Shown: positions 15,245 to 62,500, counted from the stretch's first letter. The stretch is 64,000 nucleotides of DNA from an uncultured virus (IMG/VR IMGVR_UViG_3300021961_000064) (IMGVR_UViG_3300021961_000064), one strand, 5' to 3'. Numbers and translations are program-made. Notes: generated from the sequence alone by a model not told the origin.

Positions 15245-15415
15245 TCACATTCTTGCTAAATCTGCAACTACCTCTTGTTGTTTGAGATATAATTTTAGAT
15301 AGGCCTTCGCAAAATTTATTGCTTGGTCTCTATCCATCTTATCTATGTCCCTTGCCTGTTGTTCATAGACTAACATTTTATTAATATCAGAAAGTTCAAT
15401 GTCGGAAGGGTTCAT
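15245..15415 (-). CDS. 56-aa NblA-like protein (not in ORF track)
   Basis: MNPSDIELSDINKMLVYEQQARDIDKMDRDQAINFAKAYLKLYLKQQEVVADLARM*; fills the gap between flanking genes exactly; size and IELS...M.xDQA..F pattern resemble NblA. Confidence 0.65.
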   Translation of the reverse strand: MNPSDIELSDINKMLVYEQQARDIDKMDRDQAINFAKAYLKLYLKQQEVVADLARM

Positions 15416-15420
15416 TTGGA

Positions 15421-17469
15421 TTACCTTTGAATAACTACAATTGGTTGTGTTGGATCAGATGGACTTGGATAGTAGTGAGTCAAAACTCCACCTGGGTAGA
15501 ACTTTTGGATTTCTGCCTTGACTTCTTCTCTTGATGGTCTCTTAGAACCAGAGAAGAACAGTTGCAAACGATAAGTTTTTCCTCTCCACATCAACATTAT
15601 ACTGAAAACATTACCAGTTGACTGTAATTTCTGATAATCTTCAGTTTTTAATTGTCCTGGATAGATGACTGAATCTGCGAGTGGAAGTGAAACTCCTCCA
15701 CCGAGTCTCTTTAACGCGGCTTGAGCAGCATCCTTTTCTCCACCAGTTGCACCTTTAGAGAGGTTACGGATTTTACCCATCTTCTGTGCTTTCTTGTGTC
15801 CTCCACCAATTTCAAAACTCAATCCCTCATTTGCGGGATGAACTTCGTTAGGATCATAAGCACCACCGCCACCTAATGATGGGGGTAGAGAGAACATTGT
15901 CCAATACTTCTCACCGTACTTACACTCTTTTTTCTTTTCATTCTTTTTGCACTTAGGGCAATATCTAATCTCCTCACTTTCTTTTAGAGGAGTTGGTTCA
16001 ACAATGTTAAAGGACTCATACTCAGTTGCTTTGAATTCATCTCTCCAATTGGAGAACTCATAACCTTCTTTCTTGGTCTTGTTACCCCAGTTCTTTGCAC
16101 CAACTTTACGACACTTGACTAGAGCACCAGATGCATATGCAGAAGGCCATACGGAGTAACGAGACTTTACTTTGGAATAACAGGCGTCTTTTTCTCCAGC
16201 CGCTTCCTTTGCCAAATAACCAGAAGCTGCATCCATATTGTGATCAGTATCAGTAATCTTTGCTTGAACCCAAGCTGGTATATTTTTTTCTTTTTTGCCT
16301 AGATCTTTTTTAAGTTGTTTGGCATTTGCAATTGTCTTATTCAATTGTTTGTGTGCCATTGACACTTCATGATCTTTTTCTTCTGTGGCAACGTTCTTTG
16401 CCTTACCCTTTTTATCGGGATTTGGGTCTTCCTGATTCTTACGACGGAATGCACTTTCCTCTTCCTTATCGGAGAGGGCTGCCTTCATTTTGCTGGAACC
16501 ACACTTTGGTTTTGTGGTTTGTCCTGGTTGTTTTGCACAGGGTTTTCCTGCGTATTTACCACCCAGTTGAACCCAACCAGGGGTGCCATCAGAAGCGCGA
16601 CTCTTAGTAAACCAGTCACGCAAAGAACTATCACCACTCTTGTTCCCCTCTTGGACTTCATATGATTCATCATAAACTTTCTTTCCATCTTTAATGTAAC
16701 CGGATCCTTTTTTATCGTAGAAACGAATGCCTTTAGTGAGTCTTTCTGCCGTTAGTTCCTCTTTTCTCTTTTTTGCTGTTTGTCTTTTCTCCCCTTCTTT
16801 TTCGGATCTTTCTTTATCAAGTTCTCTTTGATCTTCTGTACTAGAAATATCTCTGTACTTTCTACCAGTAACGGAAGAGGTAGAAATCATCTCTTCAATT
16901 TTTTTCTTACGACCTTGACAATGAGCTCTCTGAGAAAATCCTTTTGGATTATCGCAATCAATTGACTTCTTATATTTGTCAGACCACTCTTCTTTTACTT
17001 TCTCTACTTTCTTTAGTTTGGAGTAGTAGTTTGGAAGTTCGTCAAGATGTTGGAGTGCAATCTCTTTTGCTACTTGACTATCGGTAGTATGTTCTTTCTC
17101 TACCTTCATTCCCATTTCAAGTTGTTTTTCAATGTCCTCTTCGGACACCTTATGCTTTTTTGCGATTTCTTCTACCGACTTATATGACTTGAATGCTTCT
17201 TTTACTTCCTTTTTTCTTTCAGTGTCATCTTCTCCATGGGATAGATGATCAGCTACGGTATCAAGATACTCTGCAGCTTTTGTAATCTTTGACTGAACCC
17301 ACGCTTCAAGATCTCCTTCACCTTTAAGCTTAGTCATTAATCTAGTGATTGCAGCCTGTGCAGTCTTTAGTTCTCCACGAGCCATGGAAAACTCAAAGTC
17401 TTCTCCGAGTGGTGCGATTGTTTCTAGGTCTGCAAGAATAGACCATTCCTTAAAGGTGAGTTTGTCCAT
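15421..17469 (-). CDS. 682-aa mosaic Lys/Glu-rich protein, probable internal head (cargo) protein
   Basis: About 11 short modules separated by x-x-E junctions; one module is duplicated (aa 24-76 and 366-419). Confidence 0.6.
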   Translation of the reverse strand: MDKLTFKEWSILADLETIAPLGEDFEFSMARGELKTAQAAITRLMTKLKGEGDLEAWVQSKITKAAEYLDTVADHLSHGEDDTERKKEVKEAFKSYKSVEEIAKKHKVSEEDIEKQLEMGMKVEKEHTTDSQVAKEIALQHLDELPNYYSKLKKVEKVKEEWSDKYKKSIDCDNPKGFSQRAHCQGRKKKIEEMISTSSVTGRKYRDISSTEDQRELDKERSEKEGEKRQTAKKRKEELTAERLTKGIRFYDKKGSGYIKDGKKVYDESYEVQEGNKSGDSSLRDWFTKSRASDGTPGWVQLGGKYAGKPCAKQPGQTTKPKCGSSKMKAALSDKEEESAFRRKNQEDPNPDKKGKAKNVATEEKDHEVSMAHKQLNKTIANAKQLKKDLGKKEKNIPAWVQAKITDTDHNMDAASGYLAKEAAGEKDACYSKVKSRYSVWPSAYASGALVKCRKVGAKNWGNKTKKEGYEFSNWRDEFKATEYESFNIVEPTPLKESEEIRYCPKCKKNEKKKECKYGEKYWTMFSLPPSLGGGGAYDPNEVHPANEGLSFEIGGGHKKAQKMGKIRNLSKGATGGEKDAAQAALKRLGGGVSLPLADSVIYPGQLKTEDYQKLQSTGNVFSIMLMWRGKTYRLQLFFSGSKRPSREEVKAEIQKFYPGGVLTHYYPSPSDPTQPIVVIQR

Positions 17470-17473
17470 TTTA

Positions 17474-21732: not shown

Positions 21733-22374
21733 TTAGTAAGGAGAAACTCTAAATCCGTACTGGCCAGTACTTAGAACCTTTGGCATAAAGTTCATTGATA
21801 TGGAAATTCTATCATCAGCATTATTATCAAAATGTCCATGCAGTATATGTGACTGCCAAAGAATTAAATCTCCATTCTGAGGGAAACAGACTGTATCACT
21901 ATTATATGGAGTTTCTTTAACTTTTGCTAAACTTATAGCTTGTTTACCAATATAAGTGCAATTTGATGGAGATTGAAAAACTAGAGGAGAATGTCCAAGA
22001 TCTTTATCATAATTTACATAATATGTTCCGGAAATAAAAGAGTTTGTATGAAAATGTGGATGTTGAAATCCACCAATATTACAAACATTTATCCAACTAT
22101 CAGTAACAAAAACCCCATCTTCCAATTCATACCCAAGAGTTTCAGTTATGAATTTTTCACAAGATTTTTCACACCACCGTTTAAAATCTCTAAATTCTTT
22201 GTTTTTGAATATTGAAGTTTCTGTAGTGTTTCCGTAATGAACTAATTCTGGTGAACATAAATGTGGTTCTGGTTTTAATTTTTTTATTTGTTTTGAAACT
22301 AAGTTTTTTACGGTGTTTTGTTCTTTATAGTTATCTACGTATATTGGTGTAGCAAAAATGTCAGCAATACTCAT
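21733..22374 (-). CDS. Putative 2OG-Fe(II) oxygenase (TIGR02466-like)
   Basis: DSWIN, HPHFHTNSFISGTYYV, GDLILWQSHILHG, RISISMNF. Confidence 0.85.
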   Translation of the reverse strand: MSIADIFATPIYVDNYKEQNTVKNLVSKQIKKLKPEPHLCSPELVHYGNTTETSIFKNKEFRDFKRWCEKSCEKFITETLGYELEDGVFVTDSWINVCNIGGFQHPHFHTNSFISGTYYVNYDKDLGHSPLVFQSPSNCTYIGKQAISLAKVKETPYNSDTVCFPQNGDLILWQSHILHGHFDNNADDRISISMNFMPKVLSTGQYGFRVSPY

Positions 22375-23078
22375 TTTTTAAGTTCGTCAAAGAAAAATAC
22401 CTGAATTAATCTGCTATCTTGGGGAGTAGATCCAAAATATTTTGTTGCAGAATGAAATTGTTTTGCATCAAAAATGATACATCTATTATAGACATTTTCC
22501 GCATATTCTACAAGTTCCCACTTATCAAAATCTTCTGCTTCAGTTTTTGGAAACACAAAACTTCCATCAATAGTAGCCCTGTCACATCCATTTTCTTTGT
22601 ATTTAAAGAACCCTGTCCCGCTACCTTCTTCAGGATCTGGAGTTAGATATATAACCGCCGCGTATTCGTTTCGACTATCCGCATGTATCCACATGTCCGA
22701 TTTTTCATCACAATATTGAAAACATCCATTTGATAAAGTTCCTTCCATATTGAGAGATAGGTCAGTATCTCGTATTTTCATAGTCATTGATTGAAAATCA
22801 AATCCCAATAAATGATTATTTTCTTCATAATCTGATGAAGCCGCAAAAACCCATCTATTTGGATCTATTTTCAGTTCAGAATAATTTTCTATTTTTTGTC
22901 TATTTTCTACTAGATTTAAAATAGATGATTTTGTTCTATATCCTGGATATGTAGAATATCCATTCTCTTGCATTTTTTCTTTACCAGAAGAAGAATAGTC
23001 AGAGAATTTGCGAATAGCAAACTCTCTGACTTGATCTGGATCATTGTACCAGTTGTCTATAATTTTCAAACTAAACAT
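22371..23078 (-). CDS. Putative 2OG-Fe(II) oxygenase (DUF6445-like)
   Basis: IIDNWYNDPDQVR, YPGYRT, WIHAD, AAVIYLTP, YNRCIIFD...FHSA, RLIQVFFF. Confidence 0.8.
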   Translation of the reverse strand: MFSLKIIDNWYNDPDQVREFAIRKFSDYSSSGKEKMQENGYSTYPGYRTKSSILNLVENRQKIENYSELKIDPNRWVFAASSDYEENNHLLGFDFQSMTMKIRDTDLSLNMEGTLSNGCFQYCDEKSDMWIHADSRNEYAAVIYLTPDPEEGSGTGFFKYKENGCDRATIDGSFVFPKTEAEDFDKWELVEYAENVYNRCIIFDAKQFHSATKYFGSTPQDSRLIQVFFFDELKK

Positions 23079-24702: not shown

Positions 24703-24714
24703 TTTAAGATCCTC

Positions 24715-26233: not shown

Positions 26234-29200
26234 TTATTCTCCTAATTTTAACTTGAGTGTTTCGATTTCGGCTCTCATGGTATTTATAATCTGTTGTTGC
26301 TCCTTGACTGCCTCGATTAGGAGTGCGGTCATGTTGCCATATTCAACAGAGTACTCATCAACATCTGCAGCGTAGGTTACGACTTCAGGAATGATTGGCT
26401 CAACTTCTTGAGCGATCACACCCATCTTAACGCCTTCCTTACGTCCCTTAGCCTTAGTTAGATCCCACTCATAAGTTACACCGCGCAACGCGAGAACTTT
26501 TTCTAGAGCGTTTTCAATGGTATTAATATTGGTCTTGAGTCTAAGGTCAGATGCAGCGGTGATTGTTCCTGTTGCATAAATGTCACCAGAAACATAAAGT
26601 TCATACGTAGCGGAAGTGGTGGATCCTGTAACAGCAAGGCAATTGTTAGAGTAGCTGTAATATATGTTCCATCTTCCACCTGTTTGGTGATAGATACCAC
26701 CATTACCAGATCCATCAAACATGACATGTGGTAGGTTACCTGCGTTAAATGCAAGTCCATAATAACCACTTCTAGAACCTGTGCAATACCAAGGACAATA
26801 CGAAGTAGAAGTATTTACGTAGAAGTTTGCACCATTGGTGGCGTTGTAAATACCTGGATCAGTTCTCAACCAGTTAAAGGAGTAGTTATAGTTCGAACCA
26901 CCATTAATTTGGAATCTTACGGTATCGCTGTTATAGTCATTCTTAAATCTAATACCCTCATAACTTGAGTTAGCGGCAAGAGTGACGCCTGTGTGATACT
27001 GAAGAACCAAATCTGGAATAGCTCCAGACCATCCACCGGATTCCTGGAAACCAAATGCATATGGATAACTGGATCTTGCGTTACCACTATTAGATCCAGC
27101 GATTCCTGGGGTGAAGTATGCAGCGGTTAAACCTGCAGAACCGTCTCTGACTGCAACAGTACTGCCGCCACGGCCTGTTGAAGTGCCATATCCATCAACC
27201 GTATCCGCATCAAGACCAGATCCAGAACCATCGTTTCCGTCGTTCCACATCTTTCTCCAAGATGTGAATGATGATCCCCATGTTCCTCTGATATAGGTGA
27301 GAGAAGGATCACCAGCACCAACAACCATCTGCCAACCATAACGGTTTGAAGCGTTGGTATAGTGCATTGCCTGAACACCAACCCAGTGAGAAGTACCGGA
27401 AGGTTGGTTTGCTGGGTTAGACCAAGCATCAATGAATCCGGAACCATAATCAAAGAGGGTGTTGAGGTTTATGTTGCTCCAACCCATTACTCCAGTGAAG
27501 TAATTAGAGTCGGTGGTGAAGTCTCTTCTATCAGTATCATACTTACCACTAAGTCCAAGTTGAACCTTAATGGAGTTTCTGCTCAGATATCTTAGATATG
27601 CATCATTAGATGCTGTATATCTAACAGTTCCATTACCCCAATCGCCAAGTTCTCCAGAGGAACTATTAATAAAACCACACTGAATATATCCACTACCATC
27701 AGTTCTTACGACCCTATTTGCCTGATTGTTTACTCCGGTATGGAGTTGTAATCCATCAAGGAGATCAGCGTTTAGGTTAGTAACAACAGTTGAAGATGTA
27801 ACTGAAAGTGGTGCTGTACCATTTGCGACGTTAGAGATGAGTCTGGTTCCTGTTACGGTTCCAGAAACACTCATATTTCCACTGGTGTCTAGTGTGAATC
27901 TGTTAGATCCACCACTATTTCTCATGTAGAGGTTTGTTGTGTACTGTAGATAGAGGTTATTGGAATAAGCCTGAATCTTAAAGGATTTCTCACCAGACCA
28001 AGTTGAACCACTGCTCATTGTAATGTCGCCATTCGCGTTTAGCGTAATAGCACCACTGCCACCATTAAATGCAACATCTCCCGTGAATGTTGGAGTTGTG
28101 GTTAGGTTATAGGAAGAACCATTACCAATTAAAATTGCACCGGCAGATGGTAAGGCTTGTAATCCAGTACCACCTCTGGTGATAGGAATATTACCCTGAA
28201 TATTGTTGATGTCCAGGTAGTATGCAGGAGCATTACCACCGAATGTGGAAGCATCAACGTCACCGCCTCCGGCGGCACTCTTGATTTGAACTTCACCATC
28301 ACTACCAATTAAGAACGTGCTGTTCTTGAACTTGGAAACACCGAGAGTAGAATAAAGATCTACAGTTGTTTGAACTCTGTTTAGAGTTATATTTACATTT
28401 CCATAGTAAGTATTGATTCCAACACCACTAGGAGCAAAATCAACACTGGTTGCAGTTACACCAATTGGTTGAGTTGTACCAATACCAACAGACATTACGA
28501 CCTTCTGATATGAAGAGTCGCCTCTTAGGAATGTTTGGCTATTTGCAGTTCCATTACCAAGTCTTGAAGGAGCAATGATTCCACTGACAATGTTAGCAGC
28601 GTCTACAGTATTGGTTGCGAGTAGTGCCCAATTATTCTCATCAGTTGATGATGTGTTAACTGTAGATGTGTATGTAATATTCTGTTTCGTGAAGGAAACA
28701 ATTCCTGCGCCATTTACTGCTTCAATATCAATAGCATTATAAAGAAGACCATTAGCGGATAGTAAAGAATCGGATCTTGTTAGGTGTAAGGTGAACGTAT
28801 TGTCGGTTCTGGATCCAATAAAGTAGAATGAATCGGTTGTAATTCCAGTTGGTAGAGAACCAGGTGATGTTACCTGAACAGGATCGCCCTGAGCAAATCC
28901 GTGATTTACGAATGTAATTTGATCTGTTGATGTATTAATGCCAAGTCTGGTAAGAGTATGTGATCCAGTACCACTGCTTTGTAGATTTACTCTACTGGAT
29001 AGTGCGTAAGAATCATAAAGTTCTACAGAACTTAGTCCAACTTTCTTGACCCAATAAGTGTCAAGTAGAACTAGAGGTCCTACTTCATTACCCGTTGAGT
29101 AGTATCTTACTGCATCACCATCACCGAAGATAGAGTTATCTCCGATTACGATTCTATCATTAGTAAAGTCAACAGCGCCACCAACGTCAATGCCAGTACC

Positions 29201-32200
29201 AGTAAAGGTTGTTGTTACTGCAAGGCCAACGTTAGTAGAAATTGCAACAGCAGTATTATCAGAAATATAGTCGGGCAGAGATGTAGATCCTTGGAACTTC
29301 TGGTTGTTTGTTAGAGATACATAGAGTCTTGTTTCTACAGTTCCAACTCTTACTGTAAAGTCAGAACCACCACTTCTTCCTCCAATAGATGCAGGAGCAA
29401 CAGTGACATAATCGCCACCATTATAGTATCTACCACCAGTTTCAATAGCGACTTGAGAAACTGTTCCACCAGCACTAACTGTAATCGTTAGTGACATTCC
29501 AGTACCAATACCTGTTGTTCTTAGGGCTTGTACTCCACTATAGATACCTGCAGAAGTATATCCAGAACCACCAGCGAGTGTATTGAGGTTTAGAGCAACA
29601 CCCTTAACCAAACCAGTAGTACCATAACCAATATTTCCAGAGAAGTATGTTGGAGCCGTTATAATACCAACGGCGCCGCCCTGGGAAACAGTACCTCTGA
29701 TCGTATCTCCATTACTGAAATTATAAGTTCCAGAGTTATCCAGAATGATGTACTGGCTGATTAGATCACTAATCAATACATAAGCATTTGTTGGTTCAAC
29801 TACTGTATCACCACTCTGAATATCCGCCGCTGGAATTCTATTTGCTAGAGATGTCTTACCACCTTCATAGATTGTTCTATAGTAATTGACAACTTTTGGT
29901 GGAATTAGGTCAGCATTAATTTGACCGATAGAGTTCAACTGAACAACCGAGTTAGGAACTGCGTTTGTCGATACGGTCTTATCAATGAAGGATCCTAGTC
30001 TGTTGTTTAAGAAAGCTCTTACAGCTAACTGAGTAGAAACTCTCTTATCTTGTGGGCCACCAAGTTCATTATCTCCTAGGCCTGCGTCTACAGAGAATTC
30101 CTCAATCTGAACACCACCAGAGAGTGATAGTCGGATAGAATCCAGAGTACCAATCGTAACAGTGTTGTTAAAGATAATGTTACCAGTTCTGTTATACGCG
30201 GTAATGAAGTCACCGATCTTGAAGTCTCCAAGTTCGTTTGTACCAGAGGAGTAAACACGACCACCAAGTTCGGAAACCTGTTCAGAAGATGCAACTGTTC
30301 TACCACCATTCTGAGGTAAAGCGTTGTAGTCAATACCTGAACCAGAATATTCCCATGTATGTGAGGAAGAGTTAATGATGGATGGTCTATGGAAGTGAAG
30401 TTTGTAATCCTCTGGAAGATTAGCAATACCAGTAATTGTTGTACCAGGATCAGTAGAATCTACCTTGAATTCCAAACTCCAGTAGGTAGTGATGCCTGCT
30501 ACGTTTGTAACAGCGATTCCAATTGGAACTGGACTATGATCACTAATAACTCCATTAGAACCACCAGTAATCTGGAAGTTTCTTCTTATTCCTGCTGCCT
30601 CTTCAACAGAAAGAACAAGTTCTCTGGTTGTAGAGTTATAGGTATATGCATAACCTACGGCCTGACCACCAGAGACGTTCTGAGTAACTTCTCTACCAGA
30701 AACGAATCTAATGGTATCAGTTGTAGATGCAAGAGAAACTCTCTGATAGTTGTTGTGAGAATCAATGATTTCCTTAACGAAGAATTCTTGGTTATTCTTA
30801 GTAAAGGTATGAATACCAGTTGATACAGAAGTGAGGTCTACTAGTCTTGAGAAACTATCATCTTCATAAAGTTTGAAGCTGTTTGCATCAATATACTGTA
30901 CAAAATACTGGTTTTGGTTAACAAGTCCACCAATAATTCTAGGTGGAACCGCTTGTTCATCACCGAAGTAAACTACACTATCTCCTTGTGAGAATGGGTG
31001 TGCAGTAATATTAATTGTTTCAGTATTAGTATCAACACCAACTGCAGCATTAAACTCAGAAGTTACTAGAAGTGGTTTGAAGAGGTTGGTTGAGTCGTTA
31101 TTATTATTATCATAGAAACGACATACATATAGATCCTGATCACTTCTACCAACACCAACAACTCTTAGAGTCTGTAAACCACCAGAAGTACCAGTTGCAG
31201 CAATTCTGGAACGGTCGAAGATGAAGGAATTCTGACTGAATCCAGTAGATCTTAGAGCATAGAAACCGAAGTTAGTTGCAGAGTTGGTAATGGATAGATA
31301 ACCACCAGACTGTGCAAGTGAACCATATCTACAGAAGATTTGGAAACAAGAAACAACCTGTGAGTAACCATCGTTGATAACACGCCAACCAATACCACCG
31401 AAGGAAACCATGGTAAATGCCGCAGCAACCATGGACTTACCTTGTTCTGGTTGTACTAAGTCTGGGTTTATTTCAGCTTCTTCTGGAATAATTGGAATGT
31501 TTGGACTTAATACCTTAGATCCGTCAACCAACATTCCATTACCACCGAGGAACGATAGAATAGAACAGTTCTGGATATAAGGAGATCTGGTGATGATTGA
31601 TTTACCAGTCTTGACTGCATATCCTTCTCTTGATACAAATGGATCGGAAGGATCGTCAAATGCAACAGCGTTATCAAATGTATATTGTGGAACACCAGCA
31701 TCATCAACATAGTCCTTCATTGCAAATCCAGTTAGGTAGCAACCGTTTCTGACTCTTAGAAGGTCTTTGCCTGCATTTCCTGGTCGGATAATGGTATTTC
31801 TTAGGTTATCACCAAGAACAGCAACGTCTTCATAAAGGATAATTGGGTTGTCCTCAACATATTCACCAGCCTCAACGATAATTGCAACAGGAGTTGACTT
31901 AGCGGTTGGAGCAATGACTTCCGGAGCAGAAGTAGTACCAACACCAACGATTGTTGTAATAATTCCAACGAGGTTGCTGATTGTTGACTGAACGTTAGCG
32001 CAGCAAGATTCGTGGTATGAATTTGTGTATCCAGAACAGGTTACATCATAAACAACTTCAAAGTCAAAAGCTTGTCCTACTGTATTCTGGAAGTTTCCTG
32101 TTGGACTTACAACTACTGGAGCAGCATTTCCAAAGATTGCAGTTCCACCAGAGACGTAAGTGTGAGCAATTGTAGAAATACCAGCAGCAAATGTAATTAC

Positions 32201-35200
32201 ATTTCCGTCTACGGATGTTGCAGTGAATGTATCTCCGTATGGGCTAGAACCGTATGGATCTACTGGATATGGGAATGTGGTTGTTGTAATTCCTGGAGTT
32301 GCAGTTCCACCAGAGACGTAAGTGTGAGCGATAGTGGATACGCCACAGTTAACTACAATTTGAGCACCGAAAGTTCCATCTACACAACGGAATACATCAT
32401 AGGTTCCATATAGTGCATTGTTATTGTGTAGTGGAGTTGGGAAGATAGTTGTGGAAATTCCAGCATGTTCTGAATCACAGGAGAATTCGATTCCTTCAAG
32501 TTTTACAGTATCGTCTGGAGATAGTCCATGGTTTGCATCAAGAGTGATCGTGCAAATACCAACAACTTCATTATAATCAACATTAGTAATATTAATGTCG
32601 TTGGTGGTATAACTATCACAGGACATCGTTAGTCCAGAAAGTTTGAATCTAGATCCAGTTGTAATTCCTAGACTCGAATCTAAAGTTACAGTTGCAATAC
32701 CAGAAGTTGCTGTATACTCTAGTCCAGATACTGTAGTACTTGTTCCAGATCCAACGATAGAAGTTACAATACCAACTAGGTTTACAATTGCGGATTGTAC
32801 ACTTGCACAACAGTTTGAACTATATGCTGATGGACTGCAAGTAGAATCAAAAGCAATAGAACTATCAAATGCCTGTGATACAGTTCCTGCAACACCTGTC
32901 TGATAGTGTGTTGGAACTCCTACGTTGTTGATGACGTATGGAGAAATTTCATAGATGTATTGGAACGCAGCGATTGTTTCAGTTACTTCTCCACTTACGC
33001 TATTATTTGTACCAGTCCAATAAGAAACACCAGCTCCAACAGTCTTAGTATTACCACCGAATGATAGGTCGTATGAAACGGCCTCAATGATATGACCCAT
33101 GTCTCTTAGACACTTGGTTCTATCATAATCTGGATTTGATAGTAATGATGGATAAGTTGCGGTGATAAATCCTACAGCTTCTGCAGCGATAAAGTCTTTG
33201 TTTAGAAGTAGCAGGGTTCTTGCATCGTTATAAATGCCACTAGGACCAGCAACAGGAACGTTGTTAATTACATACTTAGATAGATTGACGATGTGATTAA
33301 ATCCAGCGATTGTTTCAGTCTTTTCACCATCAACATAGTTTGTACCAATTCCACTGTAGTATGCTAAACCTGCCTCAACAGATTTGGAGTTACCGTTATA
33401 AGTTAGGTCATACTCGATAGCATCAACGATGTAACCAACATCTCGTTTGCAAATTTCCCTATCCCAATCTAAAGCGGTAGAGAATCCAGGGAATGTTGCA
33501 GTAATAAATCCTACAACTTCTTCTTGGATGAATTCTCTGTTAGCTTTGAGTAGTTTCGCACCATCTAGATATTCTGCTCCAGGTAGAACGAATGATTCGA
33601 AAGATGCTAACTGAGCCGCACGCTTGAGTGTCTTAACTGGTTTTGTCTTACCGTCATCATTGTCATTACCATTAGCACCAGAAACATAAAGTCTATTTTC
33701 ATACAAACCACCTGGGTTTGTGGAGAATCCGAGATTACCGAATCCATCAACAATTAGAGACATACCATCTCTACCTGGGTTTGGTGGTAGAGTTAGTGTA
33801 TAGTTTGTCGCAATAGCAACTCTTGATTGTTGGAATGTTACTGTTTGATCTAGTCCAGTATAAGTATTAACTCCGACAAAACTTAATTCAGTTAGACTGG
33901 TGTCATTGAAAGTTTGAATTCCAGTGTAGTTTAGATTAGAACCGGTTAAGTTTGTAGCGATTCCAGAATCTACTTGTAAATCCTTAACACCGTGAATTGC
34001 ATCAAATCTTCCATCAATAGTCATTCCATCAGTTGTTGATGTTAGACCAACGGTTAGAATTCCTGTGAGTCTTCCATTTCCATCAACAATAAATGTTGTT
34101 TGACCAGCACCAATACGTACATTTCCTAAAGTAGCGATTCCAGTATACTCAATATTAGTACCAGAAAGCTCAGTAACAATACCAGAAGCAACTTCAATCT
34201 GGTTTAGAGTTGAAATACCAGGAACAACAAAGTTATTAACAGTTAGGTCAGAAGTAATGATAGTCCTTCTGGCAATAACAGTATCAAAACTACCAATTCC
34301 TGTAAAGTTTGCATTTTTACCTTTTAAGGAAGGAATTGTACTAATTCCCGATACAGAGTCTTCAAAATAGAAGTCTTGAGTTATTACAGCTCCTTCTTCA
34401 TAAGTAAATACATATTCACTGACTCTTCTAAAGACATAAGATTGTGTCTGAATTCCAACGTTTGTAGCTGCCTGGGAAAGTGTAATCGAACTTACACCAA
34501 TTCCAGCAACTGTTGTTCCAGCGAGAATGTATGTTGGTGCAATAATTACATGACCGATATCAATATTTGCCGTTGCAATACCTGTGATAGTACTTACACC
34601 AGTTGACGCTAAAGTACCTTGGTAGATACTTTCACCATATGGTTCGGAACTTGCTACAGAAACAGTTACCGATCCAATACCGATACTGATAACGGTGACT
34701 CCGGATCCAACATACTCACCACTTACCGCAGAACCTACGCGAATATTGTTAGTTGTTACTCCAGCAATCTTATCTCCATTAATCGTTTCAATATAACCAT
34801 TCGTTGTTTGGATTGGTACGGTGTTTAGAGCAAATCTGCTAATTTCAACACTACTATTTCCGATAGATACAACTTCTGTTCCTGTAGGCAGATATTCGTT
34901 TGTTACGGCATAACCTACTTGAACACCATCAGTAGCAACGCCACTAATGTAATTAGTATTTCCTACAGCAAGTGTTCCTTGATATACTACTGAAAGAGGA
35001 TTGTTTACAACGATTCTCTGTAGAGCATTAATCTCTGTAGCGGTAAGATGCTCGATTCCACTTACACTAGAGTTACCACCATTCAGTGTAATGGAAGAAA
35101 CTCCAACAGTAAGAATTCCGGTTACTCTTGCATTTCCTGTTACGTCTAGATTAATAGTACTTCTCGAAGCACTTTCAAATGTCTGTAGAGGAACTACTTC

Positions 35201-51941: not shown

Positions 51942-53537
51942 TTAGAACTCCAGTACAACTTTAATATCTTCTTTTTGGCTCACTGATCTAGGAATTGGTG
52001 GTCTATTATCTATGTAGATAACTTCACCGGATCTCTTATTAAACTCTGCAGAACCAATTCCAGATACAAAATCAATTCCCAGTTGATATATTCTATTATT
52101 TATTGTGGTGGTTATACCACTAAAGTTTGTATCAATATTCAATTCTGGACCAACTACAGAACTTCCATTTATAGTTGTACCATATCCAACATCTGGTTGA
52201 GAAGTAAATTTTAAAATTTTATATCCAGTTTCACTGGAGGCTAATCCGGTGGGTTGGTAATATTTGAGAACACCAGTGACATTATCCCATGATGCTACAT
52301 AACCAATTGCAGTAGATCCCAGTCCAACAGTTTGTTTAATGACAGAATCCACAGCATACGTGGTATTTGTGGTAACGCCAGATAATTTTAACGCCTGTAA
52401 ACCACTAACTAGTGAAACATTTAAAATTTCTGTGTCACTATTTGGTATTGTGGGGTTTTTCATTATCCCAACTCTAGCGAAATCATTTCCCAGAATAATA
52501 TCTGGATTACTTTCCAAGGTTTCGAATCTAGAATAAAGAAGAACTCTGTAAGCACCGAGTTCTCTATAAATATCATATCCATGACCACCTTTTGGTGGGA
52601 TAACAACGTTAAAAGCAGCTACTGAAGTTGTTCCAATTCCCGTATTTGATAAATTACTTATGACTCCGCCACTTTCAGATCCAGGAGCTCCTGGATAAAA
52701 CTGGATTGTTCCATATGTATATCCAGATCCCCCTTCAGTCACAAATACTTCGGAAACCTTTCCAAAAGAATCAATAGTAATTGTAGCTCTTCCACCAGAA
52801 CCATCACCCAAAATAGGGACATTTGAGAATGAAGTAGAAATTGGTTGATAATTAGAACCTCTATTGTCGATCAATACAACTTCAACTTTTCCATCAATTG
52901 CATTATTTTTAGTAGAAATGCTTTCCCCAGATCTACCCCAATCTTCAGGAACGGGGATATATTCGATTGAATCGAACTTAACAATTTCAGATGGTTTAAT
53001 AGTATACAAATACTTCCAGGTATATCCATCACCAGATGTACCTGCAGCTCTAGGTTCTAGATCAATAAAGGTTGGTTGATCATAAGAAGGTCTACCTTTT
53101 GGATTCTCTGGATCAGTTCCATTTTGCAAACAAATATACACTCTCAGATCTTCATTAATTACATAATAGTTTGATTCATATAATGAAGATGCAGATGTAA
53201 CTGGACTTGTATTGTAAATGCTGTAGTCGTGTCTATACATCTCATAAGTATTACCAGCTACCCATTCAACCTTTCTAACCAATCTTCTCACATCTTGGGA
53301 AGATATTTGTTTCATAGCAATGATGGTGTCTTTTATTTGGTTTTCTTCCTTAAATCCATCCAAAGGCGAAGGAGTGTTGGTAATCCAAGTTGGAGTACCG
53401 CCAGCAGCTTCACTCAAGGAATTTGGAAGTCCAATAAAAGTATAATACTTATCAGTTGTGTTTGCTGAACCTACAACATTTTTTACAAAGTTTTCAGCAT
53501 TCAATATTCTAAATTGATCCGATATAATTGCAGGCAT
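51942..53537 (-). CDS. gp8: Baseplate wedge subunit
   Basis: AIISDQFRILNA, YEMYRHDY, VYICLQNG, DGYTWKYLY, QKEDIKVVLEF; CTAAATA at 53561-53567. Confidence 0.92.
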   Translation of the reverse strand: MPAIISDQFRILNAENFVKNVVGSANTTDKYYTFIGLPNSLSEAAGGTPTWITNTPSPLDGFKEENQIKDTIIAMKQISSQDVRRLVRKVEWVAGNTYEMYRHDYSIYNTSPVTSASSLYESNYYVINEDLRVYICLQNGTDPENPKGRPSYDQPTFIDLEPRAAGTSGDGYTWKYLYTIKPSEIVKFDSIEYIPVPEDWGRSGESISTKNNAIDGKVEVVLIDNRGSNYQPISTSFSNVPILGDGSGGRATITIDSFGKVSEVFVTEGGSGYTYGTIQFYPGAPGSESGGVISNLSNTGIGTTSVAAFNVVIPPKGGHGYDIYRELGAYRVLLYSRFETLESNPDIILGNDFARVGIMKNPTIPNSDTEILNVSLVSGLQALKLSGVTTNTTYAVDSVIKQTVGLGSTAIGYVASWDNVTGVLKYYQPTGLASSETGYKILKFTSQPDVGYGTTINGSSVVGPELNIDTNFSGITTTINNRIYQLGIDFVSGIGSAEFNKRSGEVIYIDNRPPIPRSVSQKEDIKVVLEF

Positions 53538-53563: not shown

Positions 53564-56500
53564 TTAGACCGGTCTTGTACGGAAAGCTTGTGGATTTGTT
53601 TGAATTCCGACTATTCCGTTATCATTATAAACTTCAAATGTTTCTGGGGCTCCCAAAACTCTATTTTGATAATCGTATAATTTACCCCAACTATAATTTC
53701 CATAGAAAGGAAGTGTTCCACTAGAACCATTGGTATTGATTCCAGAGTTATCTGCTCCTCTCTTGTAAATTTCAACATAATTATCATTTGGAGATTTTGG
53801 TGCCAAATTGCAAGTAACGGTTGTTACGCCGGCAGATGCGCCAACTCCAACAGAAGTTTGAACATCCTCTACTCTATAAACACCGTCTAAGAAAGTGGTA
53901 GCAGTACCAATCTTAGAAGTCGGATAGTTAGCCATTCCACCAAGAGAAGTAGTAATACCGATAATTGGATGTCCAGTAGTTACATTGGAATTCCTTATAA
54001 CAAAATAATCTCCTTTGGATAGTTGACTATAAGTTACATTAAACGAATTCAGTGAAGAATATCCTATCCCAAGAGTACTATTATCATAATAATCGGATTG
54101 CAGTATAAATTGTACTTTTGGTGTGGTTGTTCCTATTCCTGGAGTACCAGCAAGGAATGTATTAATTCCAATCACTCTACCAAAATCACCCAGGGCCTTA
54201 ACTGACTTGACAAGTTCTGTCTTGACTGGATCAGGTTCTATCAATACAGATGGAGGATTACTTGTTGAATATCCAAATCCACCATCCAGAATAGAAATCG
54301 AGGTAACAACTCCAGCGGTTACGTTGGATACAGCCGTCGCTCTATTAAAGATGGGTTCCGCATAAATTGCAGTATTTACTCCAACAGAAACATATCTACC
54401 CTCAAGACCAACCTCGGAAACAAATCTAATAGAGTTCAACGAATTAAGTTGATCTGTTGGTCTATAAACCCAATTTATCAGATCGAAGGAATAATACAAA
54501 TCACCAATGGAGTTTAGAGCAACATAGAAATCATTATAGAAAATATCAACAATATCACCCGGAATCAAGGAAGTTCCTAATAATTCGAAAGATGATGGAT
54601 CGGGGACACCAGGTTGTCCAGAATAATCCGCAGTTCTAATAATAGTTCCATTATTTCCGACAGCAATAAATCTATCACCAACAAAAATAACTTTATTCAA
54701 TTTTGCAAAAGTAACCGATCCAAGAGTATCCCAGATAGAATTGTTTGTAGATCTAATGACTACTCCATCATCTCCCACTGCAACGATTTGCGATAATCCA
54801 ACTGCAAGACTATTGAGTGACTTTGTTGTTCCAGTAAATCTTCTAGTAAAGACACTGGTTCCAATACCCGATGCTCCAAACACTGCTCCTATAGCAGTGG
54901 CAACACCAACCATTGTCCAAGTATCAAGTTGAGGATTATAGACTATATCATTTATTGTTTCATTATAAGTACTGGAAGTGAATCCAATTACCCCAAACTG
55001 AGGTACAAATATTTCTTCAATTATATTTAATTTTTCCCAAGAAGTGATAGTTTGTGCGTATCCAACAGACTTAACAACATAACCATATCCGCCTCCAGCC
55101 ATGAAGATATTTGTTCCACCACAAGAAACTACTCCAAATGAAACTGTATTTCCGTATCCAATATAATCGGATTGCCAATCGGCACCATCATAACTATAAG
55201 CAAAAGCACCACTATTTCCAACAGAAACAAATACATTTCCATGATCAACGGAATTTAAAATATGTGTAGTAGAAAGTCCAGAAACTGTTCTCCAATTCTT
55301 AATTGGATCTTTTTTAGTAATCGCAGACTGAGAAACAGTTATTACTGGATTTGATGTATAAGCATATCCCACTCCACCAGACGAAATTTGAATAGAAGAA
55401 ATCGTTGAAGATGACGAAACTACACATGTTCCAATTGCTGGAGAAATTTCTCTTGTTTCGCATATTTTAATATTTCTCTTATCCTCACTGAGGGTATCAA
55501 TATCAGTGAAAATTGGGAAGGCATTATCTACATATATTTCTACATCATCTGGTAGAACTTTCTTAATTACATACGCATTTGGAACAATTCTACTATTCAG
55601 GGATGGTCTGGCCTTAGAATAAAGAACACCGCTTATTACTCTATCTCTAGTCTGTTTTTGCCACTTCAGTGGTCTTATCTTAGTGGGGTTGGTATTAATT
55701 CCAAGACTATCATATGTAAATGTATCAAGTTGATCGGAAGAAACAATAGTCTTTACGACTCTATCAAACTGATCGGTATCTAAAAGATCATCTTTATTTT
55801 CTCTAATTTGAATAAAGTCACCTTCCTTAATAGTCTTTGGTGGTTCTACGTCTTCAACGTCCACAGATGATCCTCTGAAATAGAGGATTGTGCAAGTTGA
55901 ATTCTCTTTTGGAGCTTCTTTAAATGAAACTCTAGATCCAGAGAATGTATAAGAATCTCCAGGAGATTGTAAAATATCATTTACGTAAATGAAGATATTA
56001 TTAGTAATATCCAAATCAGATCCTTGAGGGGTTCTCAAACTTATAACTTCTTTTACGTTATTATTTGTTATGGATAGAGTAAACTTCTTCCTAAATCCAT
56101 TGAAATATTGAGATATATCATCAAATTTTATAAATTGTCCAGGATACAATCCAGTAAATTTGTCCGTTTGTACTTCTTCAACTTCAAAAGTAAACTCTTC
56201 AAACTGTCTGAAGCTTACAATTCCAGACTGAGTATAATAATGAGATATTGTTGAACCAGCAGATAGGAAAGTGAATTGATTTGTAGATCCAACACTCGTT
56301 ACACGGAAATCATAAGCTCCATCAGTACTTACATCTGGGAATCTAAGGACTCTTTGGGTTGTGGGAACTTTCTTGGTTATAGAAACTTTTTGTGCTGTAC
56401 CACCAGAGACATAATTATGTGCGATAGTGGATATGCCAGCATTAAATGTGAATGATTTGTTGGAAGCTACATATGAAACGAGGAATGTCTTACCATAAGG

Positions 56501-59500
56501 TGAAGTGCCATCTGGGAAGATAGTGGTTGTTATTCCCGCATGTTCAACTGCACAAGAGAATTCTAAACCGTCTAAGGTTACATAATCTCCAACAGATAAT
56601 CCATGAGAAGTGGATGTAACTACGGTAGAGATTCCTGTGGACTCTGTATAAGTGAATGTAGATACACCAACCTGTCCATATCCCAAGAATTCATGTGGAA
56701 TTGTTGAAATACCAGAATTAATTGTAAATGTTGTTGAAGAACCAACACCTGTTACTCTGAATGTATAACCATATTCACTTGTTCCATCTGGGAAGATACT
56801 TGTAGTAACACCAAGAACAGCAGTTCCACCAGAAACATAAGTATGTGCAATAGTGGAAACTCCAACAAATATATTAAACTTATTAGTAGTTGGAACACCC
56901 ACTATCTCGAAAGTATCATATGAATTGAAGGCAAAACTTGTTGAAGATCCAACATATGGGAAAATAGTTGACGTGATTCCTGCAGTTGCAGTTCCGCCAG
57001 AGACGTATGTATGTGCAATGGTTGAGACGCCAACATCCACAACGATTGTATTGCCAGAAGTTCCAGATGTAGTCTTGAATACATTATTTGTACCGGTCAA
57101 TGATTTTTGACTTGAACCATCATATGGGAATAGAGTTGTAGAAATACCAATGGTAACTGTTCCACCAGAAACATAAGTATGATCAATTGTTGATATTCCT
57201 GCATTAATCGTGATGGTGCTTCCTGCAGTACCAGCGACAGTTTTGAAAACATTATATGTATTTGCCAAAGTATTGGGGCTACTTTGTGGGTATGGATTTC
57301 CAAAAGTATTGATTCCTGCGGGATATGGGAATAAAGTTGAAGTTAATCCAGCTGTTACTGGAGGGCATGATAGAAGTATATTTTCAACCCTCACATATTC
57401 CCCTGGTTCTATGCCATGATCACCGGAAAGAGTTAATGTGCAAAGTCCAACAAAATTTAAATAATCGAAATTAACAACATTTAATGTTGAGATTCCTGTC
57501 CAAGAGTCACATGATAATTGTATTCCATCTAGTTTTACATAACCACCAGCATCGATTCCATGATTTGCATCAGTTGTAACGGTAACGATTCCAGAAACCT
57601 CATCATAAGTCAAATTAGTTATGTTGGAGGTAGAAATTCCCAACCAAGAATCACAACTAAACTCAATGTCAGCCAAACGAGCATAATCGCCAACCAAATA
57701 TCCATGATCAGAATCTAGTATAATTGTAGTGATTCCAGCGTAATTATTATAATCTACTCCAATAATGTTGAATGTGGATCCAATGCTGGTGCAACTGAAA
57801 GGTAGATCCTTCAGAGTTACCATATCATTTGCGTTGATTTGGTGTGGTTGAACTGTAGTTACTGTAGAAATACCTGTTAGATTATCATAAACGAATGTAC
57901 TAATTCCTATTTCGGGCCAACCAACGAATATGTGTGGGATGGTCGAAACACCAGCATTAATGGTAAATACTGTATTACCTATGGATGTTAATGCTGGGAA
58001 AACTTTTCCATAAGGAGAAGTTCCATCTGGGAAGATAGTTGTTGTGATTCCAGAATGTTCTTCAGCGCAAGCGAATGGAAGATTATGTAAGAATACTTCT
58101 GTACTTGTCTTGTTCTCATCAACATCTGTTCTTAATACTCCATGTGGAGAATATGTTGTTACTGTGCATATGCCAGTTGCATTATCATATGAGAATGACT
58201 TAATTCCAACTTCATCATAACCACACGTAAATGCAGCACCAGCAAGTCTAACGACATCATTCTGGGATAGCCCATGGACATCTGTTGTTGTAACGGTGTT
58301 TATTCCAGTAATATTGTCGTAAGTAAAATTGGATATGTTTAAAATGTCCGATCTGAAACCAGTTCTCGTTAGTAGATCAGGTACTTTTAAGATATCACCA
58401 ACTTTGTAACCTATGCCAGGATTATCAATCTTAAATGAAATGACACTAGATCCTTGACCAACAACTACAGAAACTTTTGCGTTTTGGCCAACACCAGAAG
58501 TTCCTCCAGTGTAAGCCACGCCAAGATTACTGTAACCTGTAGGAATTCCAATAACAACTTCTGGTGGCGAAGATGTGGTATACCCGGAACCAGCATTTAC
58601 AATAGTAAATCCAGTAATAGTTCCAGAAGCTCCAACAGAAGCAGTAGCACTTGCACCATATCCAATTGTGGAAGCGATACTCACTGAAGGTGGCAATCTA
58701 TATCCAGAACCTATTCCAATAATATCAATCGAAGAAATGGTTCCTGCAACAGAAACATTTGCTACTGCTGTTGCACCCTTAAATGGTATATATCCATAGT
58801 TTGAACTCTGAGTTACCTTGGAAATTCTACCTGCGCTAGGAGTTCCCGTTAAGAATCTTATTACATTCTCACTGGTTCCATCAATAGTGTAATCAGTTCT
58901 TGGTTCTTGGAATACATTGTTTATCAATAGGATAGGATTGTTATTAATATCAACACCACTATTGACATCATTGAAAAGTGATGTTGTAGTATTTCCATTT
59001 ACCTTAACAGTAAACTCTGTTGCGGCAATTCCAGTAAATGATAGAGAAATATCATCTAAAATAACATTCTTATCTTGTGGTTTGGATGGATCAAACTGTC
59101 TGGATAGAACCCTACCGGCAAATATGGATCCAGTTTGCAAACCTGCTGGACCAATTTTACCATATGGAGGAGTAGTGAAGTATAAAGTATCCCCAACAAT
59201 ATTAAAATCTCCATTTAATACTGTTGAAGCAGCTCCAATAGTGTGAACTCCACTATTTGTTCCAAGATAACCTCTCTCAACCTCAACCTTATCTTCAGCA
59301 ATAACTCCAATAGTTTTGATGGAAACATACTCTTGATCGATATTAATAACATCTCCATTAGAAAGAGAATTTATTCCAGAAGAGATAGTAAGTACTGTTG
59401 TAGAAGCGCTGGATACGGGATCACCTAAAGAAACTTCTAAAGATTTTCTACGGAGAGGTCCCTGAATTACTCCATCTACCGTAATTACAACGCTACTATT

Positions 59501-62500
59501 TGGTTCTTTATATTCTAATGTGTGTGTTCCTGTACCATAACTTAATAAGTCAACAAATACACTTGTGGATAATCCAGAAACTTTGAATTTATTATCATCA
59601 ATTTTATAAACAAATAGGGATCTTGGTAATTTATTTGTTCCTAAGAAAGATGGATAAAAACTAATATCATCATTTGGGGCCACTCCACCAATATAAGTTC
59701 CAGCAATAGAAACTAAGGAAGTTGAAGCATATCCAGAACCACCATTAACAATAAACACATTTTCGAGTCTTCCATCATTATCTCTAGTTACTGTAAATAA
59801 TGCTTCAGAACCAACACCGGTAACGGAAGATGGAATATTAACATAAGAAGCATTTGCTTGAGCCTGTATCTGAGTAGCCGTTGTAGATGTAACAACAAAG
59901 CTCAAATCATTAGTTGGGGTGGCTCCACCCATATAAGTTCCGGCAATAGAGACCGTTTCTCCAACAACAAACTGGCTTCCACCCGTTTTAAGAGTAATAC
60001 TCGTACTTAAAGCATTACCAGTAGATGCAGAGTATGTAATAAGAACATCAAAAGTAGCATTTACTCCAGACAAATCTCCGTTTCCAATTGCACTCAAAAC
60101 TACTTTACTTGTGGGTCCTACTGGAACCAATACCGTAGAAATACCAATCTCTGCACCAACATCATTATTATATCCATTTTGAAGTATGGCTCCACCATTT
60201 ATTGACCCTATTCCAGTAATAACATCAACGTCACCAGAAACATAAGATGTTGTTGCAATTCCAATAGGATTTCCAGTATAAGAGTAAATTAATTCTTGTC
60301 CAGATTGGAAATTGTGATTTGGCAATACGAACTGATTTCCTTGCAGATCAATGACTGTTGTACTTAATCCACTAAATTCTCTCTTAAAGAGTGGGAATCC
60401 CTTATTCTTTAATTTGAATGTAGATAGTCCAACTATAGAACCACCTCTGGAAAGAGAAGGATATGTAATGGATGTAGGAGCAAAATTGGATCCGAGTCCT
60501 ACTATGGTAGTCACAATTCCAACATAATTTACAATAGCAGATCTAACATCCGCACAATCAGTCGAACCAATATTAGTTGTAGGGATCCCCGATAAACTTC
60601 CAGATATAACTGCTGATGTTAAAATTCCAACCAAGTTGGATATATTTGATCGTATATTTGCACAGGAATTTGGATCGGTATTAAATCCAGTAACAGGATC
60701 TGCAACAATAGTCAAATCTCTAACGTTTAATTGATTGGTAACAGCTTTACTGCAATAATCTCTTAGAGAATGGAAAGCGACCACAGATTCCTGTTCTTCA
60801 CCTATTAATCCTGTTGTTAATGCAACTCCCGCTCCACTAAAATACTTCTTCGTTGCATAAATTATATGTTGATTTGTGCCATAATTAACATCCTCAGCAA
60901 CTGCATCAATAATATATCCAAGGTCTCTATAACATTTCAATCCACCTGTAGTATAAGTTCCAACATTTATTGATGGTAAACTTGCAGTGTTTCCTGCGCC
61001 AATAACAATGGTTACAAGAGATACTAACGTGGAAATATTATTTTGGACATCTTGACATGCTGAAGTACTTGTATTGGATACTGTAGATCCAACTCCGACC
61101 ACCGGTGGGCCTGCTGTTACAGTTAGATCTTTAATTGTCAATCCGTTTCTAACAGCAGACTTCATCAAATCTCTTGCCTGTTCAAAAGCATAGATTGATT
61201 GAGTCTCTTCTCCAACTAGTCCATTACTGATAGGAGTAGTACCCGAAACATCAAAATACTTTTGAACAAACTCTCTAGAATATTTGTTGCCACCAGTAAA
61301 TATATCAGTGGATATTGCATCAACAAAATAACCAATATCTCTCTTACACTTATCTTGTGTACTGGAAACATCTGGGTAAGTCAGTATTAAATTACTCCAT
61401 GTTGTATCGATAATTTCTTGTCTATTTTGTTGAATTAATCTATATCCATCATAATATCTTGATCTACCATTAGTTTGGTTGTCTCCAGGGAAATAAAAAT
61501 CTGGGAAACTGACTGCTATAGAAGCAAGAGATTTATCTAAAATTTCTTTTTTATTAGCTACAATTAGATTTCTAGCATCTTTATTTCTATAGAGAGTTTC
61601 ATTTGTTGGATCTTGTATTAGAGCAAAGTTAAATTCTTGGTCAACGGCAGTTTGATATAAAGTTGGTGGGGATTGATTGTTGATAACATATTGTGATAAG
61701 AATTTAACATAATTATAAGCAAATAGTGTCTCTTCAGTTTCATTGGAAACGTAAGAGGATCCCGCATTCCAATAAGCTAACCCAGCTTCAACTGACTTAT
61801 TATTGGAATTATATTTTATATCATGTGCAATTGCATCAATGATATATCCAACATCTCTCTTACAAGTTTCTCTGTCATATGTGGAATTTGAACCAATATT
61901 TGGATAGTTATACTCAACAAAGGAAACTACTTCCTCTTGAATAAATTCCCTATTAAGGTTCAACATATCTGATGCGTCTGCATATCTTCCTCTCAAAGCC
62001 TGAGATGAAGTTCCGTCAAATTGATTAGAAATATCATCAATCTTCAAAACTTTATTTGTTTTATTGAGAATATAATTTCTAAGTGCAACTCCTTCATTAA
62101 AATAAACCCTTTCAACAGCACCATCAGGTAAGAAATCTTCTTCATATACTAATGCAAAATTATCTCTCTGATTTAAAGAAGCTACATTATCTAAATTAAC
62201 AAGGAACTGAGAAGCACTTGCAAGAACAGATGGTTTTAAATTGGTAGATTTAGATATACCAACATTCGTTGACTCTAATGATGGTTTTGTTATTAGTTCA
62301 AGATCGGAGAATTCTTTGAATCCAGATGGGTGAATAATAGACCTAACGGATTCTCTCCACTTTGAATATGGAATTGTACTCTTAATCGAATAAGAGAACT
62401 TTTGATAGTAGAAGTTATCTGCGATTCTTTGTTGGAACTCATTCAGGATACCAACGGCATTATCAATTTGACCAACCTTATCTCTTGAAACTCCCAAAGT

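Follow-up and report, generated by a model that had tools for sequence, protein, structure and literature searches.

The 64,000-nucleotide stretch of DNA from an uncultured virus (IMG/VR IMGVR_UViG_3300021961_000064) analyzed here, in the following referred to as the window, represents the late structural module of a T4-like cyanophage, in which two giant proteins carry small domains related to the phycobiliproteins of the host antenna. According to family matches, the module encodes the major capsid protein gp23, a scaffold protein, the prohead protease, portal, tail sheath, large and small terminase and neck proteins, and its long open reading frames (ORFs) all lie on the minus strand. Four of the encoded proteins are giants of 3644, 1481, 2501 and 3442 amino acids (aa). 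The nearest sequenced phage is Synechococcus phage S-SCSM2R (PQ898602.1), which shares 79.7% nucleotide identity with the window across the sheath-terminase stretch and has an 89% identical terminase protein. The phycobiliprotein-like domains and the genes that carry or adjoin them are located as follows.

26234..37168, minus strand: giant tail-fibre-type protein, 3644 aa (family matches)
33242..33586, minus strand: fibre phycobiliprotein-like domain 1, aa 1195-1309, site ICKRDVGY, Cys1240 codon at 33449-33451
32897..33250, minus strand: fibre phycobiliprotein-like domain 2, aa 1307-1424, site KCLRDMGH, Cys1353 codon at 33110-33112
51942..53537, minus strand: gp8-like baseplate wedge subunit (family matches)
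53564..63892, minus strand: giant gp7-like baseplate-wedge protein, 3442 aa (PHROG match and gp8 neighbour)
61649..62008, minus strand: baseplate phycobiliprotein-like domain 1, aa 629-748, site TCKRDVGY, Cys677 codon at 61862-61864
61496..61606, minus strand: detached N-terminal half of the outer nested copy, aa 763-799, profile positions 6-42
61121..61486, minus strand: baseplate phycobiliprotein-like domain 2, aa 803-924, site KCKRDIGY, Cys849 codon at 61346-61348
60707..61087, minus strand: baseplate phycobiliprotein-like domain 3, site-bearing C-terminal part, aa 936-1062, site KCYRDLGY, Cys987 codon at 60932-60934

The 3644-aa protein matches phrog_5342 (tail fibre) with an E-value of 3.1e-202 and consists of an N-terminal Mtd_N domain, the two phycobiliprotein-like domains, a beta-helix-like centre and a C-terminal Peptidase_S74 chaperone domain. 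The 3442-aa protein, with its three phycobiliprotein-like domains across aa 629-1062, matches phrog_2885 (baseplate wedge; E 3.8e-269). Its gene was assigned to the baseplate module because the gp8 homologue adjoins it directly downstream; relatives under the domain match are annotated as 'gp7' or 'baseplate wedge initiator'. The fibre protein is 61% identical over 1497 aa to ORF112 of S-SCSM2R and the baseplate protein 46% identical over 2475 aa to ORF104, and both of these ORFs were detected by mass spectrometry in CsCl-purified S-SCSM2R virions, according to extracts of the report (PMC12801897). The family matches as well as the presence of the two homologues in virions thus agree with the original prediction, in which the domains had been placed on virion proteins.

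C-x-R-D motifs are found exactly five times in the four giant proteins and are confined to the fibre protein (Cys1240, Cys1353) and the baseplate protein (Cys677, Cys849, Cys987), the expectation from composition being about 0.04 per protein. Each motif lies within a helical domain of about 110 aa, and alignment of the five copies gave 12 invariant columns. A profile built from 30 relatives from outside the window recovered all five copies with domain E-values between 1.8e-32 and 2.2e-12 (database size 1.84e9). Five CxRD-bearing domains had been proposed for this DNA before, and all of them were found again. Baseplate copy 2 lies between the N-terminal half at aa 763-799 and the site-bearing part of copy 3 and is thus inserted inside copy 3. 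Isolated N-terminal or C-terminal halves also occur in other phages, including S-PM2 and S-RIM32.

The relationship of the domains to phycobiliproteins was assessed with sequence profiles and with a predicted structure. The Pfam family PF00502 (Phycobilisome protein) matches fibre copy 2 alone with 26.8 bits (curated cut-off 22.2; E 5.8e-6) and the whole fibre protein with 24.0 bits; baseplate copy 2 reaches 20.5 bits, just below the cut-off, and the scan gave no match for the remaining three single copies of the window. Of eight family members from elsewhere that were scanned, five match PF00502 at E<=2.4e-4. In the PDB, the best match of a single sequence has an E-value of 0.13. With a profile of the five window copies it improves to 6.4e-3, 48 of 49 matches being phycobiliproteins or derived from them. 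A profile of 35 sequences, searched against 177,635 PDB sequences, gave 117 matches at E<=10 with a best E-value of 2.4e-5, and each of the best 60 of these 117 is either a phycobiliprotein or an engineered derivative of one. In the alignment, the phage Cys falls on Cys84 of C-phycocyanin alpha and the following R-D on Arg86/Asp87; the G-Y after R-D, a Tyr 13 residues on and a G-G turn match as well, so that a stretch of 20 residues has C, R, D, G, Y, Y, L, G and G in common with C-phycocyanin alpha.

An AlphaFold model was calculated for fibre copy 2, the copy above the Pfam cut-off (pLDDT 85, pTM 0.78). Among the matches listed by Foldseek for this model all are phycobiliproteins, with probabilities of 0.99-1.00, TM-scores of 0.48-0.73 on the query and a best E-value of 1.2e-2. 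VIA-align, which is independent of Foldseek, returned phycobiliproteins, ApcE and bilin-binding photocobilins as its top 10 (Z 9.9-11.4). The best match is an allophycocyanin-type chain (Z 11.4, root mean square deviation 3.1 A, 114 residues aligned), and other globin-like sensors reach Z-scores of about 8. A look-up of fibre copy 2 in the ESM Atlas was uninformative and gave only unrelated outer-membrane families (best score 0.77). The model, of about 110 aa, aligns to residues ~20-144 of the phycobiliprotein chain and hence spans a core from which the first and the last helix are missing. Pfam, the PDB profile search, the model and the fold searches converge, so that the phycobiliprotein relationship claimed in the original prediction is borne out; judged by sequence profiles and predicted structure, all five domains are true relatives of phycobiliproteins with the phycobiliprotein fold. 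The domain is a shortened globin-like core with K-C-x-R-D-x-G-Y at the start of a long helix. Its ancestor is a phycobiliprotein of the host, which T4-like cyanophages captured into their virion genes; within the tail fibre and the gp7-like baseplate protein, further copies then arose in tandem and by nesting.

A similarity that ran to E-values of only 0.13 for single sequences and about 1e-2 in Foldseek might also reflect convergence or a common helical fold with a coincidental CxRD, since helical bundles often give middling Z-scores; we regard this as highly improbable, as three independent methods agree on family and register, the profile E-value drops as the alignment deepens, nine residues of a 20-residue stretch are common to C-phycocyanin alpha and phycobiliproteins outrank every other globin-like fold in VIA-align.

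The conservation of the Cys84-type site was analyzed in the wider family. The profile of the five copies identified 1434 clusters among 1.84 billion representative proteins, with 2 to ~35 copies per protein. The two window proteins and the 150 proteins with the best scores contain 1652 copies, in which Cys, Arg and Asp of the motif are conserved to 93%, 92% and 95%, respectively, at a mean pairwise identity of 0.30. Asp68 (95%), Tyr84 (95%), Asn74 (78%) and Asp63 (76%) are conserved as well. Among the 1580 full copies, 48 are without the Cys, and these differ from the Cys-containing ones as follows.

Arg: 98% with Cys, 48% without Cys
Asp57: 100% with Cys, 69% without Cys
Tyr84: 100% with Cys, 77% without Cys
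Asp68: 99% with Cys, 100% without Cys
Asn74: 81% with Cys, 85% without Cys
Asn24: 67% with Cys, 79% without Cys

Thus, Asp68, Asn74 and Asn24 are essentially unchanged in the Cys-less copies. S-SCSM2R provides an example of such a loss: in ORF104 and ORF112 the Cys is replaced in three of six copies (by W, L and Y), while the window keeps it in all five. Of the three site-less copies, two lack Arg and Asp as well (W-x-K-D, L-x-S-E) and the third lacks the Asp only (Y-x-R-E), with the fold residues kept in all three. As Cys-less copies keep the fold residues and lose Arg and Asp together, the triad is dispensable for folding and is kept or lost as a unit. This is what one expects of a ligand site. 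The Cys84-type site of the window domains is thus intact and selectively maintained.

A second cysteine, which the original prediction had listed as a feature of the domains, is not part of the family pattern. Four of the five window copies contain a single Cys, the additional one being Cys1044 in baseplate domain 3, and among the 1652 family copies just one Cys is present in 1289 (78%), while 262 contain at least two and 101 lack Cys; in the family alignment, Cys is among the three commonest residues only in the Cys84-type column. A second repeated motif follows the phycobiliprotein-like arrays. It is a Cys-bearing helix of the form C-x2-[VI]-[QR]-x-x-[IL]-x-N-[LY]-V-G-I-[VL]-T, located at 32740-32830 and 31930-32010 in the fibre protein (aa ~1447-1475 and ~1717-1745) and within 60500-61060 in the baseplate protein (aa ~945-970, ~1074-1095 and ~1108-1130). 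This helix may be the source of the second Cys in the earlier description.

Furthermore, the distribution of the domain among phages was examined. When 50,697 phage records were searched by tblastn with both fibre domains, 400 of them matched, namely 332 Synechococcus phages, 57 records named 'Cyanophage', 10 Prochlorococcus phages and one named 'Marine'. With gp8 homologues as denominators (373, 61, 24 and 5 records, respectively), the domain is present in 332/373 of the gp8-bearing 'Synechococcus', 57/61 of the 'Cyanophage' and 10/24 of the 'Prochlorococcus' records. It was found in none of 11 gp8-bearing phages of heterotrophs or unnamed hosts (Methylophilales, Pelagibacter, Pseudomonas, Ochrobactrum and one 'Phage'). 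Within this sample of sequences, the domain family is confined to phages of bilin-making hosts. A scan of 185,579 species genomes, made with a narrow pattern, yielded one locus, on a 155-kb contig binned as Saprospiraceae, which encodes a 2096-aa tail fibre with two full copies with intact CxRD and one degenerate copy. This contig looks like a whole large siphophage: it carries genes for a 4410-aa tape measure protein, portal, capsid, DnaB, primase, ribonucleotide reductase (RNR) and TnpB together with type I-C Cas genes (Cas3, Cas7, Csd1), gave no match to psbA or a T4-type terminase, and its capsid protein has no relative among the phage records. The contig neither supports nor breaks the restriction to cyanophages.

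In the original prediction the domains were linked to phage bilin genes, among them the T-type lyase gene cpeT. None of the 40 window ORFs scanned against Pfam matched the CpeT, bilin reductase or haem oxygenase families. The association was examined in 27 complete GenBank genomes, which were searched with the domain profile and the Pfam families. Seventeen of them were hand-picked, one per named phage, from an evenly spread list of 60 gp8 matches, leaving out near-duplicates and 17 further named phages; the other ten, half of them well-studied phages and half additional Prochlorococcus phages, were chosen by accession, and P-SSP7 was added later for the phenotype comparison only. Contigs from IMG/VR were dropped for this purpose, as 80 terminase loci lay nearly all on short fragments and only two on contigs >150 kb. 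A tblastn search with CpeT of S-PM2 found 113 records only, missed divergent cpeT genes and was not used for the association. The domain is present in 20 of the 27 genomes and CpeT in 16 at E<=1e-3. Three more cpeT genomes (ACG-2014d, S-RIM14, P-SSM7) contain a short ORF with two matches that sum to above the Pfam cut-off, and the seven domain-free genomes contained no cpeT candidate even in a loose first look. The genomes are thus divided as follows.

Domain present, cpeT present: 19 genomes
Domain present, cpeT absent: 1 genome (B3)
Domain absent, cpeT present: 0 genomes
Domain absent, cpeT absent: 7 genomes (P-SSM2, S-8S56, S-SM2, Bellamy, P-TIM68, MA10, Melnitz)

All 19 cpeT genomes among the 27 are therefore domain-bearing. 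The direction of this co-occurrence is the one predicted, but it comes down to only about three events on a terminase tree, in which a single clade comprises four of the seven negatives. P-SSM2 belongs to an adjacent polytomy that is unresolved, and MA10 and Melnitz diverge at the base on long branches. A raw Fisher test on the four classes (~9e-6) was rejected as evidence because of this relatedness. The co-distribution of domain and cpeT is suggestive only and is given small weight. A bilin reductase is present in nine and a haem oxygenase in four of the 27 genomes. These two genes do not track the domain: both are present in P-SSM2, which has neither the domain nor cpeT. In S-PM2, a distance of 1.4 kb separates cpeT from the 'short tail fiber' gene downstream of it, which encodes a domain-bearing protein of 3779 aa, and the sister phage S-RIM32 shows the same arrangement; in the remaining genomes cpeT and the domain-bearing gene are far apart. 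The S-PM2 record (NC_006820.1, 168556-173383) also lists 16 tRNA features inside the 11-kb coding sequence of the fibre, under the same locus tag, which looks like an annotation artefact.

Published adsorption phenotypes were then compared with the presence of the domain. According to extracts of Liu et al. 2019 (PMC6628666), P-HM1 and P-HM2 show no adsorption without light. P-SSM2 does adsorb in the dark, with fewer phages than in the light, and dark adsorption is also reported there for two podoviruses, P-SSP7 and P-GSP1. The adsorption of S-PM2 is light-dependent without a need for photosynthesis (Jia et al. 2010 as cited in the same extracts, PMC6628666), and the results for P-HM2 and P-SSP7 are confirmed in extracts of Demory et al. 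2020 (PMC7112961). The domain is present in P-HM1, P-HM2 and S-PM2 and absent from P-SSM2 and P-SSP7. Domain presence and the dark-adsorption phenotype, as given in these extracts (PMC6628666, PMC7112961), hence agree in five of five phages, a co-distribution that is suggestive.

Several other genes of the window deserve mention. A small ORF described before as a late NblA-like gene lies directly upstream of the large terminase gene:

15245..15415, minus strand: 56-aa 'NblA-like' ORF (depositors' label on a homologue)

The size of 56 aa and 59% identity to ORF118 of S-SCSM2R, labelled NblA by its depositors, speak for this name, but no family or structure match does: the ORF had no match to Pfam NblA (PF04485) at E<=1 or to a solved NblA in the PDB at E<=10, and its sole PHROG match is phrog_27081, to which no function is assigned there. 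Between this ORF and the small terminase region, a 682-aa Lys-/Glu-rich protein with a DUF5661 match is encoded at 15421-17469, and its position is kept in S-SCSM2R (ORF117, hypothetical). Two 2OG-Fe(II) oxygenase-type genes lie within the structural module (21733-22374 and 22371-23078), and one such gene is found directly upstream of the domain-bearing fibre gene in S-PM2. A prolyl dihydroxylase was detected in S-SCSM2R virions according to extracts of PMC12801897, and the window genes may serve in virion protein modification. Three paralogous ORFs of 185-197 aa follow each other at 23552-25272; each matches phrog_6942 (tail fibre) only over the last ~170 residues of that PHROG, and they look like alternative fibre tips or adhesins. 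The 1481-aa giant protein (37224-41669) has no Pfam match. At the syntenic position S-SCSM2R has ORF111, annotated as 'TolB', the product of which was detected in virions by mass spectrometry (extracts of PMC12801897).

The phage domain can be compared with several known systems. Like the alpha and beta subunits of phycobiliproteins (CpcA/B, CpeA/B, ApcA/B; PF00502), it has a globin-like helical core, and its K-C-x-R-D-x-G-Y site is in register with their Cys84/Arg86/Asp87; the shared G-G turn comes 18 residues further on. In contrast to these subunits of 160-177 aa, the phage domain of ~110 aa is without the N-terminal helix for alpha-beta pairing and without the last helix, and it has one Cys only and the additional conserved residues Asp63, Asp68, Asn74 and Tyr84. 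Furthermore, the subunits are free antenna components, whereas the phage domains stand in tandem or nested inside virion proteins of 2000-8500 aa. The bilin-binding domain of ApcE (Z 10.8) likewise has the phycobiliprotein fold and is part of a far larger protein with several domains. It needs no lyase to attach its bilin, which by analogy would be one route for the phage domains; unlike them, ApcE is a cellular antenna component, and its attachment Cys is located elsewhere in the domain. Photocobilins (Z 10.5-10.6) and globin-coupled sensors (Z ~8) are also helical globin-like sensory modules in larger proteins. They differ in showing no sequence match, in their ligand sites and in serving cytoplasmic signalling instead of being virion parts. 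Phage CpeT (PF06206) together with PebS, PcyA and HO1 occurs in the same phage family as the domain. In T4, retraction of the long tail fibres, which involves the whiskers, depends on the surroundings, namely on pH, temperature and ionic strength, and no chromophore takes part. It illustrates the same idea of an environment-dependent adsorption apparatus, and no homology is implied.

Taking these observations together, the explanation that we put forward is that phycobiliprotein domains captured by the phage receive bilins late in infection and that adsorption of the resulting particles is favoured by light. We hold this tentatively, at a little short of an even chance. Late in infection, when the cell would be full of free bilin, a bilin would be bound in the domain pocket and linked to the Cys by a thioether bond. 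Attachment might be autocatalytic as in ApcE, or the bilin might be handed over by the small CpeT of the phage, and the particle would leave the cell with some tens of chromophores on fibres and baseplate. More speculatively, light absorbed by these bilins could alter the conformation or deployment of the fibres and thereby favour adsorption in daylight, when the host could pay for replication. The binding of bilin as such we judge to be about evenly balanced. The narrower version, close to the original prediction, in which bilins attached by the phage CpeT to the fibre and baseplate domains gate adsorption by light and make the virion photoreceptive, appears rather unlikely.

A number of findings weigh against the proposed explanation. 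No chromophore has been seen, and every step beyond conservation of the site is inferential. B3 has the domain without cpeT. Each of the two traits needs only 3 changes on the terminase tree, which leaves 1 to 3 independent contrasts, so that no significance can be claimed for their association. Since P-SSM2 has bilin genes without the domain, phage bilin synthesis cannot exist only for these domains. The phenotype match comprises five phages from ~4 lineages, and the podoviruses among them differ in everything else. In the viable relative S-SCSM2R three of six copies have lost the site; thus no single copy is essential. Asp63, Asp68, Asn74 and Tyr84 are conserved in the phage domain and not in phycobiliproteins, as judged from alignments, and could mark a different ligand. 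Without the N-terminal X helix and the last helix, the modelled domain may be missing parts that complete the phycobiliprotein pocket. Finally, the original prediction had connected a second Cys with the beta-153/155 site of T-type lyases. Such lyases act on beta-Cys153/155 according to extracts of a review (PMC10452541), and the conserved phage Cys is of the Cys84 type, with no conserved second Cys, so that this argument falls. CpeT would have to accept a site of a kind new to it or do no more than supply the bilin. In 2017, Gasper et al. reportedly observed that CpeT of P-HM1 bound phycoerythrobilin tightly without direct transfer to a host subunit.

The best-surviving alternative is a structural exaptation without pigment, in which long fibres and baseplate arms are built with the phycobiliprotein core as a rigid and compact helical unit. 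The site would then hold a metal or small ligand, or would be used for inter-chain contact, for a covalent cross-link in the fibre or for contact with the host surface. We consider this quite possible, if somewhat doubtful. High and variable copy numbers and nested copies are typical of spacer modules, the fold outlasts site loss in S-SCSM2R, and both the shortening relative to phycobiliproteins and the extra conserved Asp, Asp, Asn and Tyr near the site would fit a new role. A full-text literature search, which mostly did not reach subscription journals, found no coloured or fluorescent cyanophage particle and no description of phycobiliprotein-like virion domains; a cyanophage AlphaFold 3 preprint makes no mention of phycobiliproteins, phycocyanin, globin or tail fiber. 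A mere spacer does not explain why the three residues that contact the bilin in phycobiliproteins are the best-conserved positions, why Cys, Arg and Asp are lost jointly, or why the domain is restricted to phages of bilin-making hosts with a distribution that mirrors cpeT.

Alternatively, pigment could be bound without light sensing, for the quenching or screening of light damage to the particle, for mopping up free phototoxic bilin that escapes as the phycobilisome is taken apart late in infection, or for mimicry of a host protein. The evidence for bilin binding is the same here as for light-favoured adsorption, and proteins with 20-35 copies resemble a sink more than a sensor. The late-module ORF with the NblA-annotated S-SCSM2R homologue would also fit, as phycobilisome breakdown would release bilin-protein, but this assignment stands without a family or structure match. 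A sink, moreover, needs no placement on adsorption organelles, and the match to the dark-adsorption phenotype would be a coincidence, so that we regard this possibility as decidedly improbable.

Overall, the pigment lyase and bilin genes of cyanophages are usually assumed to boost the host antenna, according to extracts of the literature (PMC10452541, PMC2984593). Even if the domains described here carry no pigment, they would still show clearly that an antenna protein of the host has become building material of the virion, which current annotation misses. The named residues and proteins make directly testable both the adsorption of several cyanomyoviruses in the light only, which does not depend on host photosynthesis, and the purpose of the phage pigment genes, and S-SCSM2R, with three of six copies without the Cys, and the phage of the window, with all five intact, form a natural pair for comparing pigment content and light dependence. 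We know of no precedent for a virus particle with a photoreceptor pigment of its own. If true, a photoreceptive virion would explain the long-unexplained phage cpeT genes as well as the light-dependent adsorption of S-PM2 and P-HM2, and a pigmented virion would bear on the diel rhythms of infection in the ocean.

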